Origin: Salinisphaera sp.
GTDB lineage: Bacteria; Pseudomonadota; Gammaproteobacteria; Nevskiales; Salinisphaeraceae
Assembly (NCBI RefSeq): GCF_002729955.1
Contig: NZ_PBYA01000033.1
Coordinates: 5,494-69,493, forward strand
Direction: 5' to 3'
DNA length: 64,000 nt
The notes below the pieces were generated by a model. That model was not told where the DNA came from and made no database searches. It saw only the letters and a list, made by a program, of their open reading frames with translations. The translations under genes were made by a program, and so were the position numbers. This document shows, piece by piece, positions 6,649 to 39,550 of the stretch. Within the stretch, counting starts at the first letter, position 1. The number at the start of each line of letters is the position of its first letter.

Positions 6649-7263
6649 ATGACAAGCATTACGCCCGCCGATTTCAAAGCGATGCGCTTTGTGTGCTCGG
6701 CACCCAATCCGCGCGCCTTCCCGGAGCCGGCCGGCGCGGAAATCGCCTTTGCCGGCCGCTCCAATGCCGGCAAGTCCAGCGCGCTCAACGCGCTGTGCGA
6801 GCGGACCGGGCTTGCACGCACCAGCAAGACGCCCGGCCGCACCCAGGCCATCAACTTCTTCACCAGCGATCAGCTGCGCTTCGCCGACCTGCCGGGCTAC
6901 GGTTTCGCCAAGGTGCCGCCGGCGGTCAAGGCCGCCTGGCAGGCGCTCATCGAGGGCTATCTGGCCACCCGCACAACCCTGGCCGGGGTGGTGCTCATCA
7001 TGGACGCGCGCCGCCCGCTCATGGAGTTCGACCGCCAGTTGATTGACTGGGGGGAGGCCCAGGGCCTGGGCTTTCATCTGCTGCTGACCAAGGCCGACAA
7101 GCTGTCGCGCAACCAGCAGGTCAATACTCTGCGCCAGGTCGAACGCGACATGCCCGATGCCAGCGTACAGCTGTTTTCATCCACCAAGCGCCAAGGCATC
7201 GACGAGGCCCGAGCCGCCATCGCGGCCTTTGCCAACGGTGCCAATGAGCAGCGCGTCGATTAG
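6649..7263 (+). CDS. engB: ribosome biogenesis GTP-binding protein YihA/EngB
   Basis: 204 aa. P-loop GRSNAGKSSALNAL, DLPGYG switch and LLTKADK (NKxD-like) motifs. Confidence 0.93.
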   Translation: MTSITPADFKAMRFVCSAPNPRAFPEPAGAEIAFAGRSNAGKSSALNALCERTGLARTSKTPGRTQAINFFTSDQLRFADLPGYGFAKVPPAVKAAWQALIEGYLATRTTLAGVVLIMDARRPLMEFDRQLIDWGEAQGLGFHLLLTKADKLSRNQQVNTLRQVERDMPDASVQLFSSTKRQGIDEARAAIAAFANGANEQRVD

Positions 7264-7273
7264 CGAACTATAT

Positions 7274-7292
7274 GCAAATGCGAATCATTCTC
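7274..7292 (+). promoter_or_regulatory. candidate Fur box overlapping the promoter of the small ORF at 7331
   Basis: GCAAATGCGAATCATTCTC matches 14/19 positions of the GATAATGATAATCATTATC Fur consensus. A TATGCT -10-like hexamer follows at 7296-7301. Confidence 0.3.
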
Positions 7293-7330
7293 ATGTATGC
7301 TCGAAGCACATCCTTCAGGAGGGCTGACAC

Positions 7331-7531
7331 ATGGGATATGACATTCGGGCCTGGCTCGATCGAGAGGGCCGCCCCCAGTTGCAGATCATCGATATCGATT
7401 CCGGCCACGTGCAGCTGGCCTGGGACTGCGGCGGCGAACGTTCACCCGCTATCAAGTCCCTGTTTCATGAGCTGATCCTGCTAAGCGCACGCGAGGATCT
7501 CAATCGGCGCATGGTCGCGCCGCGCCGTTGA
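7331..7531 (+). CDS. hypothetical small protein (66 aa)
   Basis: ATG preceded by a strong SD (AGGAGG, 7 nt spacing). Balanced, non-repetitive composition. A hairpin plus T-run follows downstream. No family recognised. Confidence 0.55.
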   Translation: MGYDIRAWLDREGRPQLQIIDIDSGHVQLAWDCGGERSPAIKSLFHELILLSAREDLNRRMVAPRR

Positions 7532-7576
7532 CGCCGCCAGCCGCGCCCATATCGCGCGGCGACGACCGCTCATCGG

Positions 7577-7610
7577 AAAACCGGCCGTTTTAATCGACGC
7601 GCCGGTTTTT
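7577..7610 (+). terminator. putative intrinsic terminator of the small ORF
   Basis: AAAACCGGC...GCCGGTTTTT: a GC stem with a large 15-nt loop, followed by T5. Confidence 0.45.
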
Positions 7611-7653
7611 CTGTGGCATAAAATAGCCACAGCAAGAGATTGATTGCTCAGGG

Positions 7654-7770
7654 AATAAAAAAGCCCCGGCGGCAGGGGGAATACCGCCGGGGCGACCGAT
7701 CCGGCCTTGGGGGGGGGACCGGATCGAATTACCGCTCAGGGAGAAAAGCGGGCAAGTATTGCGCTTGCAT
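7654..7770 (-). ncRNA. C-rich-loop small RNA, copy A (sX13-like architecture)
   Basis: Minus-strand RNA: SL1 GCAAG-CGCAAUA-CUUGC; SL2 CCGCU-UUUCUCCCUG-AGCGG; SL3 CGAUCCGG-UC9AAGG-CCGGAUCG; SL4 GCCCCGGCGG-UAUUCCCCCUG-CCGCCGGGGC followed by U6 (terminator). The 5' end is inferred from the promoter at 7775-7802. Confidence 0.7.
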
Positions 7771-7774
7771 AGGG

Positions 7775-7802
7775 TCAGACCGGCAGCCAATCGGTTTGTT
7801 CC
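7775..7802 (-). promoter_or_regulatory. ECF sigma-E/AlgU-type promoter of sRNA copy A
   Basis: Minus strand GGAACAA-N16-TCTGA. Confidence 0.55.
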
Positions 7803-7872
7803 AAAAAAGTTGAAAAAATTTGCGGCTCGACGGCGGGCGGCTCTGGGGAGAGCCAACCTGCTGAATGAGCGC

Positions 7873-7984
7873 AAAAAAAACCCCGATGGCTGGGGGAAGC
7901 CTATCGGGGCAATAGACCGGTTCTTGGGGAAAACCGGATTCGGTTACCGCTCAGGGAGAAAAGCGGTCAAGCATCGCGCTTGTA
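7873..7984 (-). ncRNA. C-rich-loop small RNA, copy B
   Basis: SL1 CAAGC-GCGAU-GCUUG; SL2 CCGCU-UUUCUCCCUG-AGCGG; SL3 CCGGUU-UUCCCCAAG-AACCGG; SL4 CCCCGAUAGGCU-UCCCCC-AGCCAUCGGGG followed by U8. Confidence 0.72.
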
Positions 7985-7989
7985 GAGGG

Positions 7990-8018
7990 TCAGACCGTGA
8001 ACTCGGCGGGGGAGTTCC
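7990..8018 (-). promoter_or_regulatory. ECF sigma-E/AlgU-type promoter of sRNA copy B
   Basis: Minus strand GGAACTC-N17-TCTGA. Confidence 0.6.
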
Positions 8019-8075
8019 TGACCGAACCGGTTATTTTTTGCGGCGTGGACGCCCGTCCAGCAACAAAGCCGGCCA

Positions 8076-8191
8076 AAGAAAAACCCCGACGTCGTGGGGG
8101 AACGACGTCGGGGTAAATATTCCGGTTCTTGGGGGGAAACCGGATATCGGTTACCGCTCAGGGAGAAAAGCGGTCAAGCCTCTTGCTTGTA
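8076..8191 (-). ncRNA. C-rich-loop small RNA, copy C
   Basis: SL1 CAAGC-AAGAG-GCUUG; SL2 CCGCU-UUUCUCCCUG-AGCGG; SL3 CCGGUU-UCCCCCCAAG-AACCGG; SL4 CCCCGACGUCGU-UCCCCC-ACGACGUCGGGG followed by U5. Confidence 0.72.
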
Positions 8192-8196
8192 CAGGG

Positions 8197-8225
8197 TCAG
8201 ACCGTGGCCCTCGAGCCAGAGTTCC
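8197..8225 (-). promoter_or_regulatory. ECF sigma-E/AlgU-type promoter of sRNA copy C
   Basis: Minus strand GGAACTC-N17-TCTGA. Confidence 0.6.
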
Positions 8226-8289
8226 CGAGTCAGCCCACTATTTTTTCGCGGCGCGACCGGCTTGCTGGCCGAATTGGGAATCACCCCCA

Positions 8290-8410
8290 ATAAAAAACCC
8301 CGACGTCGCGGGGGAAACGACGCCGGGGCGAGTGTTCCGGTTCTTGGGGGGAAAACCGGATATGGGTTACCGCTCAGGGAGAAAAGCGGTTGAGCGTCGT
8401 AACGCTCATG
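8290..8410 (-). ncRNA. C-rich-loop small RNA, copy D
   Basis: SL1 GAGCG-UUACGA-CGCUC (stem sequence differs from B/C but pairing is retained); SL2 CCGCU-UUUCUCCCUG-AGCGG; SL3 CCGGUU-UUCCCCCCAAG-AACCGG; SL4 CCCCGGCGUCG-UUUCCCCCG-CGACGUCGGGG followed by U6. Confidence 0.72.
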
Positions 8411-8415
8411 GAAGG

Positions 8416-8443
8416 TCAGACCGGGCGTTTCCAGCCGAGTTCC
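8416..8443 (-). promoter_or_regulatory. ECF sigma-E/AlgU-type promoter of sRNA copy D
   Basis: Minus strand GGAACTC-N16-TCTGA. The -35 element lies only ~38 nt after the polA stop codon. Confidence 0.6.
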
Positions 8444-8480
8444 CGAGATTCGCGAAAAATTTTCAAACCGCGCTCTGGCC

Positions 8481-11234
8481 TCAATGTGCCTGCTGCCAGT
8501 TGGCTGCGATGCCGGCCTCGGCAAGCAACGGCACGTCGAGTTCTGCCACCCGGCCCATGCGCTCACTGATGACCTTGCCCAACCGCTCGGCCTGGTCCGT
8601 GGGCACTTCGAAGACCAGTTCGTCATGTACTTGCATGATCATGCGGGCCGGCTCCCCGGTTTCGTGCAGCCACGCATCCACGTCGATCATGGCTTTCTTG
8701 ATCAGGTCGGCGGCCGTGCCCTGAAGCGGCGCGTTGATGGCCGCGCGTTCCGCGCCCTGGCGGCGCGCGCCGTTGCGCGAATTGATTTCCGGTAGATAAA
8801 GCCGACGCCCATAGAGCGTTTCGACATAGCCCTCGGCCTTGGCAAGCTTGCGGGTTTCGTCCATGTAGCGACGCACGCCGGCGAAGCGTTCGAAGAAGCG
8901 ATCGATATAGGCACCGGCTTCCTCGCGCGAGGTTTCCAGCTGTTTGGCCAGCCCGAACGCCGACATGCCATACATCAGGCCGAAGTTGATCGCCTTGGCC
9001 GCGCGCCGCTGATCGGTGCTGACCTCATCAAGCGGCGTATCGAAGACTTCCGAAGCCGTGGCCGAATGAATATCCCGCTCTTCGTTGAAGGCCGCCAGCA
9101 GGCCCGGGTCGCCGGACAGATGCGCCATGATGCGAAGCTCGATCTGCGAGTAGTCGACGGCCAGAATCTGCTGGCCTTCGGGGGCGATGAACGCCTCCCG
9201 GATACGCCGGCCGGATTCGGTGCGAATAGGGATGTTCTGCAGGTTCGGATCCGACGAGGACAGTCGACCGGTGGCTGCGACCGCCTGATGGTAGGAGGTA
9301 TGAATACGCCCCGTGTTCGGATTGATCTGGGTCGGCAACTTCTCGGCATAGGTCGAGCGCAGCTTGGACAGCTCGCGCCACGACACGATAAGCGCCGGCA
9401 GTTCGTGCTGATCGGCCAGTTCGCGCAGCACGTCCTCGGCGGTCGAGGGCGCGCCCTTGGGCGTTTTGCGGATCACGGGCAGGGCGAGCCGATCGAAGAG
9501 AATATCCTTGAGCTGGGCCGGCGAACCGAGGTTGAACTCGCCCCCGGCGGCCTCGAACGCCTGGGTCTGGATTTCGGCCATACGCTCGGCCATTTCCTGA
9601 CTCACCCGGCCGAGCAGATCGCGATCGACCAGTACGCCGTTGGCTTCGACGCGGGCGAGCACGGGCATGAGCGGCATCTCGATATCTTCGTACAGCGCCT
9701 TCAGGCGCGGACTCTCGGCGAGCTCCCCGTAAAGACGGTGATGCAGCTGTAGCGTGATATCCGCGTCTTCGGCCGCATAGGGCGTGGCCTGTTCCAGCGA
9801 TACCTGGTTGAAGGTGATCTGCTTGGCGCCCTTGCCAGCCACTTCCTCGAACTTGGTGGTGCTCCGGTCCAGATACTTCTGTGCCAGCGAATCCATATCG
9901 TGACGCGTGGCCGTGCTGTTAAGCACATACGATTCGAGCATGGTGTCGTGATCGGCGCCGGCAACCTCGATTCCGTGACGGCGCAATACGTTGATGTCGT
10001 ACTTGATGTGCTGACCGAGCTTGGCGATATCGGGGTTTTCCAGAACCCCGCGCAGGCGATCGAGCACGGTTTGCATCGACAGCTGTTCGGGCGCGCCCAT
10101 GTAGTCGTGGCCGACCGGTACATACCAGGCCTCGCCTGCCTGAACCGCGAACGACAGCCCCACCAGATTGGACTGCATGGCCGACAGCGCATCGGTTTCC
10201 GTATCCACACAGATCAGGTCGGCGGCCTCAAGCCTGGCCATCATGGCCTCGAGGGCGTCCTGGTCGCGTACCTCGTGGTAATGCGTTTCGGCGGGTGCAG
10301 CCGGCACGTCCGGGCTGGCCTGTTCGGCGGGCGCGTCCAGATCTTCCAGGAACTTGTGGAATTCATAGCCACGGTACAGATCGCTGAGCGCCCGGACATC
10401 GGCCTCGCGCCGGGTGAGCGCCTCGCCGACCGAACCCAGGTCCAGATTACAGCGGATCGTGGCCAGATCCTTGTACAACGGCAGCTCGTCGAGCGCCGCG
10501 CGCAGGTTGTCCGCCACCTTGCCGCCGATTTCGTCGGCGTGGGCCATCACGCCGTCGAGGCCGTCGTACTGCAACAGCCATTTCGCCGCGGTCTTCGGCC
10601 CGACCTTGGCCACGCCGGGGATGTTGTCCGAACTGTCGCCCACCAGGGCGAGATAGTCGGTGATCAGCTCGGGGCCGACGCCGAATTTCTCGTGCACGCG
10701 GGCCACATCGGTACGCTTGTCCTGCATGGTATCGAGCAGGTTCACCCGCTCGTTGACCAGCTGCGCCATATCCTTGTCGCCGGTCACGATCAGCACTTCG
10801 CCGGCGTCGCGGGTGGCCAGGGTGCCGATTACATCGTCGGCTTCCACGCCGTCGACCTGCAGCAGGGGCAGGCCCAGTGCGACCACCACGTCGCGAATAC
10901 CCGCGAACTGTGCCGAAAGTTCTTCGGGCACCGGCGGACGATTGGCCTTGTAATCGGCGAACAGCTCGTTACGAAAGGTCGGGCCGCGCGGGTCGAACAC
11001 CACCACGATGCGATCGGCATCGTATTCGCGCAGGAACTTGCGCAGCATGTTGGTCATGCCATAGATCGCACCCGTGGGCTCGCCGGCGGCGTTGGTCAGC
11101 GGCGGCAGCACGTGGTAAGCGCGATACAGCCACGACGAGCCGTCAATAAGAATCAACGGACCACGCGGCGGCGTCGCAGCTGCGTTTTCGGAAGCAGAAG
11201 AACCAGCGGAATCGGACATGGGAGCAACCGGCAA
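8481..11234 (-). CDS. polA: DNA polymerase I
   Basis: 917-aa ORF with the 5'-3' exonuclease N-terminus (PLILIDGSSWLYRAYH), the 3'-5' exonuclease domain, and the polymerase motifs (DYSQIELRIMAHLS, QVHDELVFE). The track start is TTG at 11234. An ATG five codons downstream (11219) is an alternative start. Confidence 0.97.
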   Translation of the reverse strand: MPVAPMSDSAGSSASENAAATPPRGPLILIDGSSWLYRAYHVLPPLTNAAGEPTGAIYGMTNMLRKFLREYDADRIVVVFDPRGPTFRNELFADYKANRPPVPEELSAQFAGIRDVVVALGLPLLQVDGVEADDVIGTLATRDAGEVLIVTGDKDMAQLVNERVNLLDTMQDKRTDVARVHEKFGVGPELITDYLALVGDSSDNIPGVAKVGPKTAAKWLLQYDGLDGVMAHADEIGGKVADNLRAALDELPLYKDLATIRCNLDLGSVGEALTRREADVRALSDLYRGYEFHKFLEDLDAPAEQASPDVPAAPAETHYHEVRDQDALEAMMARLEAADLICVDTETDALSAMQSNLVGLSFAVQAGEAWYVPVGHDYMGAPEQLSMQTVLDRLRGVLENPDIAKLGQHIKYDINVLRRHGIEVAGADHDTMLESYVLNSTATRHDMDSLAQKYLDRSTTKFEEVAGKGAKQITFNQVSLEQATPYAAEDADITLQLHHRLYGELAESPRLKALYEDIEMPLMPVLARVEANGVLVDRDLLGRVSQEMAERMAEIQTQAFEAAGGEFNLGSPAQLKDILFDRLALPVIRKTPKGAPSTAEDVLRELADQHELPALIVSWRELSKLRSTYAEKLPTQINPNTGRIHTSYHQAVAATGRLSSSDPNLQNIPIRTESGRRIREAFIAPEGQQILAVDYSQIELRIMAHLSGDPGLLAAFNEERDIHSATASEVFDTPLDEVSTDQRRAAKAINFGLMYGMSAFGLAKQLETSREEAGAYIDRFFERFAGVRRYMDETRKLAKAEGYVETLYGRRLYLPEINSRNGARRQGAERAAINAPLQGTAADLIKKAMIDVDAWLHETGEPARMIMQVHDELVFEVPTDQAERLGKVISERMGRVAELDVPLLAEAGIAANWQQAH

Positions 11235-38476: not shown

Positions 38477-39550
38477 TCAGCCGCGGCGTAGCGTCCCATG
38501 TTCCACGTGGAACATCGCACCGTCTTTGAGGGCGTCGGGTACCAGACTCGGTTCGAGGAAAGTCAGGAAACACTGGCCACCAAGCCCCGCGATTTCTTCG
38601 GCGAGAACCTGCCGGTAGCGTGCGCCCAATTCGGCGGCCATATCGTCGATCAGCAAAACGGGGCGCACTTGTCGACGGGCATATAAAAGCCGAGCCTGAG
38701 TAAGCAGCATCGCCGTGGTCAGGATTTTCTGTTGACCTCGCGATACCCAGTCGCGAGCGGCGGCCGTAGCGATCGATACACGAAGGTCAGCACGGTGTGG
38801 GCCCTGTTGGGTGAAACCTGCGCGCACGTCCTGATCGAGCGACGCAGCGAGTGCTGCGCCATAGCCGTCCTCTCCGCGCCACCCACAGTCGTATTCGAGA
38901 ACGACAGGCTCGTCGCCGAGGAGCTTGGCCGACTGGTCCGGCAGGTTCGCATACAGATGGTCGATATAGGCGCGACGAGAAGCGTCCACTATTTCTGCCG
39001 CACGGACGAGCTCCGCATCCCATACAACGATGTCTGCTTTTGACATGCGCGACTTCAACGCGCGATTACGTTGTTTGAGGGCGCGCCTGAATCGTCGCCA
39101 TGCTGGAAAGAAAGCGTGTTCCACGTGAAACACGCCCCAGTCGAGGAAATGCCGCCGATAGCGGGGACCCTGTTCGAGCAGGCGGTGAACGTTAGGGTCC
39201 ACCATTTGCAGGGGCAGCGTGCTGATTAGGTCGATTCGGTTGGTGTTGCTTTCGCCATCGCGACGATATTTGATACCGCGCTTGTCCCGACTGACGCCGA
39301 GGCGATGAGATCGGCCGTCCGGCACGGCGATGTCACCGGTCACAGTGAAGGCGCTCGCGCCTGCACGTATTGCTGGACGAGGTCCGGACTGGCGAAACGA
39401 CTGACCACGACCCAGAAAATAGATCGCCTCGAGCAAGGTGGTCTTGCCCGAGGCGTTGTCGCCGGTAATGACGTTAATCGATGGATCAGGTTCGATGTCC
39501 GCTGAGGCGAAGCAGCGAAAATCGTGCAGGCGAAGACGCGTTAGATGCAT
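38477..39550 (-). CDS. recF: DNA replication/repair protein RecF
   Basis: 357 aa. Walker A GDNASGKTTLLEAI. Position between dnaN and gyrB. Confidence 0.95.
   Translation of the reverse strand: MHLTRLRLHDFRCFASADIEPDPSINVITGDNASGKTTLLEAIYFLGRGQSFRQSGPRPAIRAGASAFTVTGDIAVPDGRSHRLGVSRDKRGIKYRRDGESNTNRIDLISTLPLQMVDPNVHRLLEQGPRYRRHFLDWGVFHVEHAFFPAWRRFRRALKQRNRALKSRMSKADIVVWDAELVRAAEIVDASRRAYIDHLYANLPDQSAKLLGDEPVVLEYDCGWRGEDGYGAALAASLDQDVRAGFTQQGPHRADLRVSIATAAARDWVSRGQQKILTTAMLLTQARLLYARRQVRPVLLIDDMAAELGARYRQVLAEEIAGLGGQCFLTFLEPSLVPDALKDGAMFHVEHGTLRRG

Follow-up and report, generated by a model that had tools for sequence, protein, structure and literature searches.

A tandem array of predicted C-rich-loop small RNA genes between polA and engB in Salinisphaera

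Four tandem units downstream of polA

We examined the spacer next to polA in the genome of Salinisphaera sp. (assembly GCF_002729955.1, contig NZ_PBYA01000033.1, positions 5,494 to 69,493 of the forward strand; this stretch of 64,000 nucleotides (nt) is referred to as the window, and positions are counted from its first letter). On the minus strand, the 1.2-kb interval between the polA stop codon (8481) and a convergent gene holds four head-to-tail units of about 110-120 nt each, which a preliminary description, made from the letters alone, had taken for an expanded set of small RNA (sRNA) genes similar to sX13 of Xanthomonas. The unit coordinates and tandem layout given there hold, and only the proposed period of 210-220 bp turned out slightly less regular: the actual unit offsets are 217, 203 and 214 bp, and the period given by Tandem Repeats Finder for 7872-8390 is 207 bp. 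The mean column identity among the four units is 73% with the flanks included and 82% for the RNA bodies. The units are as follows, with bit scores under R1, a covariance model which we built from the four copies.

7654..7770, minus strand: putative sRNA unit A, the engB-proximal copy; fold -58 kcal/mol, z -6.36
7873..7984, minus strand: putative sRNA unit B; fold -45.4 kcal/mol, z -5.10; R1 119.1 bits
8076..8192, minus strand: putative sRNA unit C; fold -53 kcal/mol, z -7.66; R1 130.4 bits
8290..8410, minus strand: putative sRNA unit D, the polA-proximal copy; fold -55.9 kcal/mol, z -7.28; R1 120.9 bits

Each unit body folds on its own into four hairpins (-45 to -58 kcal/mol, z -5.1 to -7.7), as had been described, and none of 200 dinucleotide shuffles folds as well as the real units. 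The first stem-loop (SL1) varies in sequence among the copies while its pairing is kept, with the same three stem sequences that had been reported: GCAAG/CUUGC in A, CAAGC/GCUUG in B and C, and GAGCG/CGCUC in D, where the stem is lengthened to 7 bp. SL2, CCGCUUUUCUCCCUGAGCGG, was said to be identical in all four copies, and it is. The earlier account of SL3 was likewise accurate: the stem is CCGGUU...AACCGG in B, C and D and is lengthened to 11 bp in A (CGAUCCGG...CCGGAUCG, with a C9 loop), and across the copies the loop consists of four to nine C residues ending in AAG. SL4 is an intrinsic terminator in which a 12-13-bp stem (first put at 10-12 bp) carries a C5 loop and is followed by a U tract; a terminator scan detects it in three of the four units. 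Every unit therefore presents three C-rich loops, UUUCUCCCUG in SL2, C4-9AAG in SL3 and UUCCCCC in SL4, or 12 per array, and these are complementary, as can be read directly from the sequence, to GGGAG and GGGG motifs.

The preliminary description had named covariation in relatives as a check on the stems. We scored 32 modelled pairs in 22 Salinisphaera copies, using slid alignments and 500 shuffles as controls: 95.2% of cells form standard pairs, double changes occur at 18 of the 32 pairs as opposed to 2-6 in the slid controls, and no shuffle reaches any of the observed measures. In a wider set of 40 sequences, which includes sX13 genes and single-copy gammaproteobacterial relatives, double changes occur at 28/32 pairs, compared with 10-13 in the controls, and the covariation score is 0.519, compared with 0.089 at most. 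The stems thus covary far above the controls in both sets. SL2 is invariant, and so uninformative, within Salinisphaera, but covaries in the 40-sequence set; conservation extends to all three of the non-terminator hairpins, and cross-species covariation to two of the three.

That the units are individually promoted had been proposed earlier with no motif named. A scan of 7400-8700 for the sigma70 consensus found no promoter, and we therefore searched for another promoter type. The motif GGAAC-N17-19-GTCTGA, which can also be written as GAAC(TC/AA)-N16/17-TCTGA, stands ahead of all four units, and its 4 matches in the 64-kb window, against 0.06 expected, lie only there; an A/T-rich tract is found 10-20 bp further upstream in each case.

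8416..8443, minus strand: promoter motif of unit D, GGAACTC-N16-GTCTGA; A/T-rich tract 8455-8467
8197..8225, minus strand: promoter motif of unit C, GGAACTC-N17-GTCTGA; A/T tract 8238-8247
7990..8018, minus strand: promoter motif of unit B, GGAACTC-N17-GTCTGA; A/T tract 8031-8040
7775..7802, minus strand: promoter motif of unit A, GGAACAA-N16-GTCTGA; A/T tract 7803-7822

In both halves and in its 16-17-nt spacing the motif matches the published AlgU/sigmaE consensus, GAACTT-N16-17-TCtgA (PMC3819740). It ends 3 nt 5′ of the modelled RNA start, which places the predicted transcription starts at about 7770, 7983, 8190 and 8409, close to the 5′ ends proposed earlier, and predicts RNAs of about 110-120 nt; the 3′ end of unit D would fall within the U tract at about 8291. 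Among 46 family members from Salinisphaera and beyond, 31 have GAAC-N18/19-TCNNA upstream, as compared with 0.5% of random 85-nt windows, and the distance from the motif to the model start is typically 3 nt (1-13 nt outside Salinisphaera).

Salinisphaera arrays and relatives beside engB

The convergent partner of the array is engB. We ran R1 over the window and 82 engB loci from named genomes, and arrays of two to four copies were found in the engB-polA spacer at all seven Salinisphaera-type loci, listed here with the locus labels used below.

Window, Salinisphaera sp.: 4 copies
L007, S. aquimarina: 4 copies
L009, S. shabanensis E1L3A: 3 copies
L008, Salinisphaera sp. SPP-AMP-43: 3 copies
L010, record titled “Endozoicomonas sp. 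G2_2”: 3 copies
L012, Salinisphaera sp. PC39: 2 copies
L011, Salinisphaeraceae metagenome-assembled genome (MAG), contig truncated: 2 copies

The preliminary description had staked its case on the stems and C-rich loops recurring downstream of polA in relatives, and arrays are present at all seven of these loci. The engB-polA gap measures 1.0-1.6 kb in Salinisphaera-type genomes, as against about 0.1-0.5 kb in most other Gammaproteobacteria that have the pair.

Individual copies can be followed by position. Unit A has orthologues at L009:7012-7125 and L010:6987-7100 (91% identical each) and at L007:5977-6093 (81%), and its GGAACAA motif variant also precedes the unit A orthologues in L009, L010 and L012. 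Unit B corresponds to the middle copy of S. shabanensis (L009:7226-7340, 89% identical), and unit D to the polA-proximal one (L009:7444-7564, 84%). Unit C has no S. shabanensis counterpart; its identity with B, with D and with each of their two L009 counterparts is 81-83%, its SL1 is like that of B and its terminator like that of D, so that it looks like a recent duplication or a recombinant. S. aquimarina has a recent duplication of its own middle copy (91% identical). From the positional orthology of A, B and D and the recent duplications in the middle, we conclude on sequence grounds that the array is old, with recent turnover in its middle, and that A, B and D represent at least three long-lived positional paralogues.

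Two observations concern individual records. At L010 (NZ_JAGHQU010000005.1; array at 6987-7620) EngB and PolA are 82% and 88% identical to those of the window, and the “Endozoicomonas” record is probably mislabelled or contaminated. At L008:6267-7100, a stretch of about 830 bp separates the polA stop from the last copy detected and holds short open reading frames (ORFs) only, with no R1 match.

Outside Salinisphaera, about 25 further loci from Gamma- and Betaproteobacteria have an R1 match directly 3′ of engB and convergent to it (20-60 bits), nearly all of them single-copy; overall, a match lies directly downstream of engB in about 35 loci. Across Gamma- and Betaproteobacteria, engB is thus the conserved partner gene of the sRNA locus; this partnership and the sigmaE-type promoters had both been missed in the preliminary description. 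Most of the unannotated gammaproteobacterial single-copy RNAs carry the sigmaE-type motif. In five Methylococcales loci (L013, L015, L019, L046 and L049) with engB-polA gaps of Salinisphaera size (1.7-2.2 kb), no R1 match was found. In a Thiohalophilus MAG, the engB-adjacent copy is accompanied, at a distance of about 2 kb, by a second and weaker family member (L053:8619-8752, minus strand; 25.8 bits) that also has a sigmaE-type motif and may have arisen by dispersed instead of tandem duplication.

R1 also recovers sX13. In Lysobacterales engB is not beside polA, so that sX13 could not appear in the engB loci of that order. For a direct test of the link, we retrieved sX13 loci from metagenomes by a pattern derived from the Rfam consensus; 87 stretches matched, and the 80 listed loci (L089-L168) were analysed. 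Each of the 80 contains exactly one R1 match (41-55 bits, E 1e-8 to 1e-12), next to polA in 80/80 and next to engB in 0/80. The R1 alignment at these loci, for instance L089:5615-5740 (minus strand), reaches about 11 nt further 5′ than the Rfam sX13 annotation, and a conserved hairpin, ACAGGC...GCCTGT, homologous to SL1, spans that annotated end; the 115-nt RNA published as sX13 may therefore have its start, or a processing site, within this SL1-like hairpin.

Rfam at gathering thresholds reports no family in the window, and the same holds for six Salinisphaera loci and eleven engB loci of Lysobacterales; the expectation that standard annotation would pass over the array has thus proved right. 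With relaxed thresholds, matches to 6C, Scr3202, NsiR1, tfoR and Spot_42 lie far below their cut-offs and reflect common C-rich loops or terminators only. An R1 match elsewhere in the window (39418-39528, 23.8 bits) reads as Walker-A coding sequence and was set aside as a false positive.

The protein-coding and open reading frame features around the array are these.

8481..11234, minus strand: polA (DNA polymerase I), from its ORF and translation and from the Pfam domains of the identical gene in locus L001; upstream of the array and co-oriented with it
6649..7263, plus strand: engB/yihA (ribosome-biogenesis GTPase), Pfam MMR_HSR1, identical to a protein named YihA/YsxC from Salinisphaera sp.; convergent with the array
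7331..7531, plus strand: 66-amino-acid (aa) ORF between engB and the array, no Pfam match; convergent with the array
7759..8724, plus strand: 321-aa ORF with GYRSGRKAVK repeats, no Pfam match; antisense to units B-D and to the polA 3′ end

EngB of the window and EngB of S. shabanensis E1L3A share 95% identity, and the contig of this marine genome is also present in Tara Oceans assemblies; looking up the exact sequences of two Salinisphaera EngB proteins gave no match. As the terminator scan found no terminator between the polA stop and unit D, the unit D terminator probably serves polA transcripts as well. The 66-aa ORF is kept as a protein in four Salinisphaera loci by tblastn (89% in L009, 73% in L010, 68% in L007 and 57% in L012), and is probably a real small gene, with no apparent role in the sRNA system. 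Between it and unit A, at 7540-7650, are two more hairpins, ACCGGC...GCCGGT, flanked by A and T runs, and CTGTGGC-ATTTTAT-GCCACAG, which probably form the terminator of a plus-strand transcript of engB and the small ORF.

Proposed action and alternative explanations

We consider it likely, with a probability of about 0.7, that the units are four paralogous, separately transcribed sRNAs of about 110-120 nt with C-rich loops and sigmaE-type promoters, related to sX13, anti-hemB and ErsA. Under this reading, an extracytoplasmic function (ECF) promoter of the RpoE/AlgU type with its upstream A/T-rich tract would transcribe each gene, and its own intrinsic terminator would end each transcript, yielding an RNA with a variable 5′ hairpin followed by three C-rich-loop hairpins. 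By analogy with sX13, the loops would pair with G-rich, Shine-Dalgarno-like mRNA sequences and lower translation, while the promoter would tie output to the envelope-stress response, as it does for ErsA in Pseudomonas. Four copies with 12 near-identical seed loops would mainly raise the dose and the slope of the response, and the diverged 5′ hairpins and linkers would leave room for some specialisation.

Several points weigh against this reading, in which transcription, the RNA ends and sigmaE dependence are predictions. The pair counts come from model-fitted alignments, which favour the modelled structure, although they exceed those of the slid controls by a wide margin. No homologue of rpoE was found in the window by tblastn with E. 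coli RpoE, and its presence in the genome is assumed. Boxes of the GGAAC type at -35 are common to many other ECF sigma factors. Target prediction, another check suggested at the outset, consisted of a crude duplex scan of the loops against approximate starts of window ORFs of at least 120 aa, which was topped by the units' own antisense and by spurious high-GC ORFs and gave no interpretable targets. No Rfam family reaches its gathering score, so the units are not sX13 by the curated cut-off. Finally, sX13 is the relative that comes nearest in overall architecture, and the sigmaE-type motif is present in none of 43 unique sX13 upstream regions, in agreement with the reported constitutive expression of sX13 (PMC3771888), and promoter type therefore varies within the group.

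The last of these points, together with the wide occurrence of GGAAC-type boxes, would also suit genuine sRNA genes of the sX13 kind that are expressed constitutively or under another ECF sigma factor. Where the Salinisphaera units have GGAAC-N17-19-GTCTGA, the conserved box upstream of sX13 is another one, CTTCACGA...yATAnn, and a quantitative PCR (qPCR) table shows the anti-hemB RNA ncS04 unchanged in all of its seven conditions, among them biofilm, starvation and osmotic stress (PMC5688073). Such control is nevertheless unlikely, as both halves of the unit motif and its 16-17-nt spacing fit the AlgU/RpoE consensus, and the motif recurs ahead of relatives from many orders, including ErsA, for which sigma22 dependence is published (PMC8575079, PMC7565897). 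As an observation on the sX13 genes themselves, 60 nt upstream of the RNA the CTTCACGA box is invariant and is accompanied by a yATAnn box, the spacing between the two being unlike that of a standard sigma70 promoter.

A different question is what the loops would bind. Three per RNA and twelve per array, nearly identical between copies, they could serve mainly as a multivalent decoy of the CsrB or RsmY kind, titrating an RNA-binding protein or a G-rich RNA, and the authors of the sX13 study left open whether its loops bind RNA, protein or the ribosome (PMC3771888). In the same study, however, regulation of reporter fusions was shown with mutants to need both the C-rich loops and G-rich (4G) motifs in the target mRNA, ErsA acts by base-pairing with mRNAs, and no candidate protein partner is encoded beside the array; we regard a decoy function as rather improbable. 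Still less probable is that the repeats are duplicated terminators or insulators between convergent polA and engB that yield no stable RNA. A strong terminator does end every unit, the setting is convergent and polA has no separate terminator of its own, but the conservation of three non-terminator hairpins, with covariation in two, speaks against it, as do the promoter motif at a fixed distance from every unit and the experimental detection of homologous sRNAs in three other lineages. As for the 321-aa plus-strand repeat protein, its frame is uninterrupted from 7759 to 8724, but it overlaps the polA 3′ end on the opposite strand, lacks any Pfam match and is split in S. shabanensis into ORFs of 101 and 126 aa in spite of the 95% identity of EngB, and the substitutions among copies keep RNA base pairs rather than its reading frame. 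A protein-coding origin of the region is thus refuted for practical purposes, and the ORF is spurious, as had been suspected.

Relation to known small RNAs

The paralogous sRNA genes proposed here are of a kind already known, namely C-rich-loop sRNAs at the polA/engB locus, and do not amount to a new principle. In Xanthomonas campestris pv. vesicatoria and other Xanthomonadaceae, to which it was described as exclusive, sX13 (RF02232) is a 115-nt RNA with C-rich loops that is always found downstream of polA (PMC3771888), much as the preliminary description had stated. Like it, the units lie directly downstream of polA in the same orientation, measure about 115 nt and consist of a 5′ hairpin and three C-rich-loop hairpins, of which the last is the terminator (the unit loops contain CUCCC, C4-9 and C5); the 5′ hairpins are clearly alike, and the loops of the third hairpin (CCCCAAG) and of the terminator (UCCCCCUG) are near-identical. 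Unlike them, sX13 is single-copy in all 80 listed loci, has no engB neighbour and no sigmaE-type motif, and differs in the sequence of its second hairpin, GGAUCUCUCCCAUCCCCUGGAGCAGAUC. When the Rfam models were run at relaxed thresholds, which was the check originally advised, sX13 was the top match for copy A, the most sX13-like of the four, at 48.3 bits (E 1.1e-7, cut-off 50), while copies B, C and D scored 28.4-29.8 bits. The initial view of a four-copy sX13-like array is supported, R1 also recovering every listed sX13 gene, with the qualifications that the curated cut-off is not reached and that SL2 and the promoter follow anti-hemB and ErsA in type, not sX13.

The second hairpin is matched in the anti-hemB RNAs of Burkholderia and other Betaproteobacteria. 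The anti-hemB model (RF02837) gives the four units 35.9-41.8 bits, with E-values between 5e-8 and 2e-6, below the cut-off of 49.5, while the betaproteobacterial engB-adjacent RNAs score 63-72 bits and are genuine anti-hemB. The conserved first hairpin of anti-hemB, CCCGC-UUCUCCUCCCUGA-GCGGG, is followed by a small hairpin and the terminator, and SL2 of the units, CCGC-UUUUCUCCCUGA-GCGG, aligns with it with one indel, so that the most conserved hairpin of the two is nearly the same, CC(C)GC-UU(C)UC(CU)CCCUGA-GCGG(G). Both also lie directly downstream of engB and convergent to it, have a sigmaE-type motif upstream and end in a terminator with a C-rich loop. In contrast to the units, anti-hemB is shorter (81 positions in the Rfam model), its middle hairpin lacks a C-rich loop, and it is single-copy and not adjacent to polA in the loci examined. 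The anti-hemB RNA ncS04 is a 105-nt transcript confirmed by Northern blot, for which Hfq binding was reported (PMC5688073).

ErsA of Pseudomonas is likewise encoded in the polA-engB spacer (PMC8575079, PMC7565897), and shares with the units its orientation, a promoter of the AlgU consensus and a C-rich terminator loop. It differs in having two hairpins around a U-rich single-stranded seed region instead of three C-rich loops, in being single-copy, and in that the similarity is mostly confined to the terminator: under the ErsA/Pseudomon-1 model (RF01719), the best unit, C, reaches 37.1 bits against a cut-off of 50, compared with 134 bits for Pseudomonas ErsA, and R1 scores ErsA at 20-23 bits.

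Judged by sequence, the units thus appear as a mosaic, resembling anti-hemB in SL2, promoter type and linkage to engB (and ErsA, too, in promoter and position), and sX13 in the remaining three hairpins and in linkage to polA. Salinisphaera would have expanded an old engB/polA-linked sRNA locus, of which sX13, anti-hemB/ncS04 and ErsA are the described members, with unit C as a recent extra copy. Whether these three RNAs and the unannotated single-copy RNAs of Gamma- and Betaproteobacteria all descend from one ancestral sigmaE-driven engB-polA gene, with the units as the linking mosaic intermediate and with Salinisphaera alone having made a stable array, we put at about even odds; if so, the locus would rank among the oldest base-pairing sRNA loci that can be traced in Proteobacteria. 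In Rfam the three are separate families with no clan, and none of the literature searched discusses sX13, anti-hemB/ncS04 and ErsA together or mentions sX13 with ErsA, although the connection may have been made elsewhere. Base-pairing sRNAs can usually not be traced beyond a family or order, and the units, which stay below every Rfam cut-off and yet match both sX13 and anti-hemB significantly, with the promoter type and position of ErsA, provide a testable case for one old family linked to an envelope-stress sigma factor.

Other systems resemble the array in fewer respects. CcsR1-4/cuckoo (ar14) of Alphaproteobacteria and NmsR/NgncR_162-163 of Neisseria are also tandem siblings with C/U-rich loops complementary to ribosome-binding sites, the NmsRs being described as tandem sRNAs with CU-rich regions. 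Their genomic context is unlike that of the Salinisphaera array, and the CcsR RNAs arise by processing of a single transcript under RpoHI/HII control, whereas each Salinisphaera unit has a promoter motif and a terminator of its own. Copy A scores 38 bits under the ar14 model, well below its cut-off of 58.8, and the parallel with these arrays, like the one drawn earlier with RsaE, is an analogy rather than a demonstrated homology. Spot 42 (spf) of Enterobacteria and Vibrionaceae occupies the same polA-engB/yihA spacer, and only this location is common to it and the units: its model gives 23 bits against a cut-off of 80, its promoter is controlled by CRP and its seeds are not C-rich loops.

Measured against these systems, what is new is a tandem array of two to four copies, independently promoted to judge by the motif and kept across Salinisphaera, together with sX13 homologues outside Xanthomonadaceae, a sigmaE-type promoter common to the units, ErsA and anti-hemB, and the mosaic make-up that connects three Rfam families lacking a clan. 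The authors of the sX13 study had asked whether the polA loci of other bacteria encode related sRNAs (PMC3771888). In practice, the comparison yields a covariance model and a locus rule, beside engB/polA, for sRNAs that pipelines miss, and removes a spurious 321-aa ORF. With their positional paralogues kept across the genus, the Salinisphaera arrays offer a natural experiment in sRNA gene dosage.

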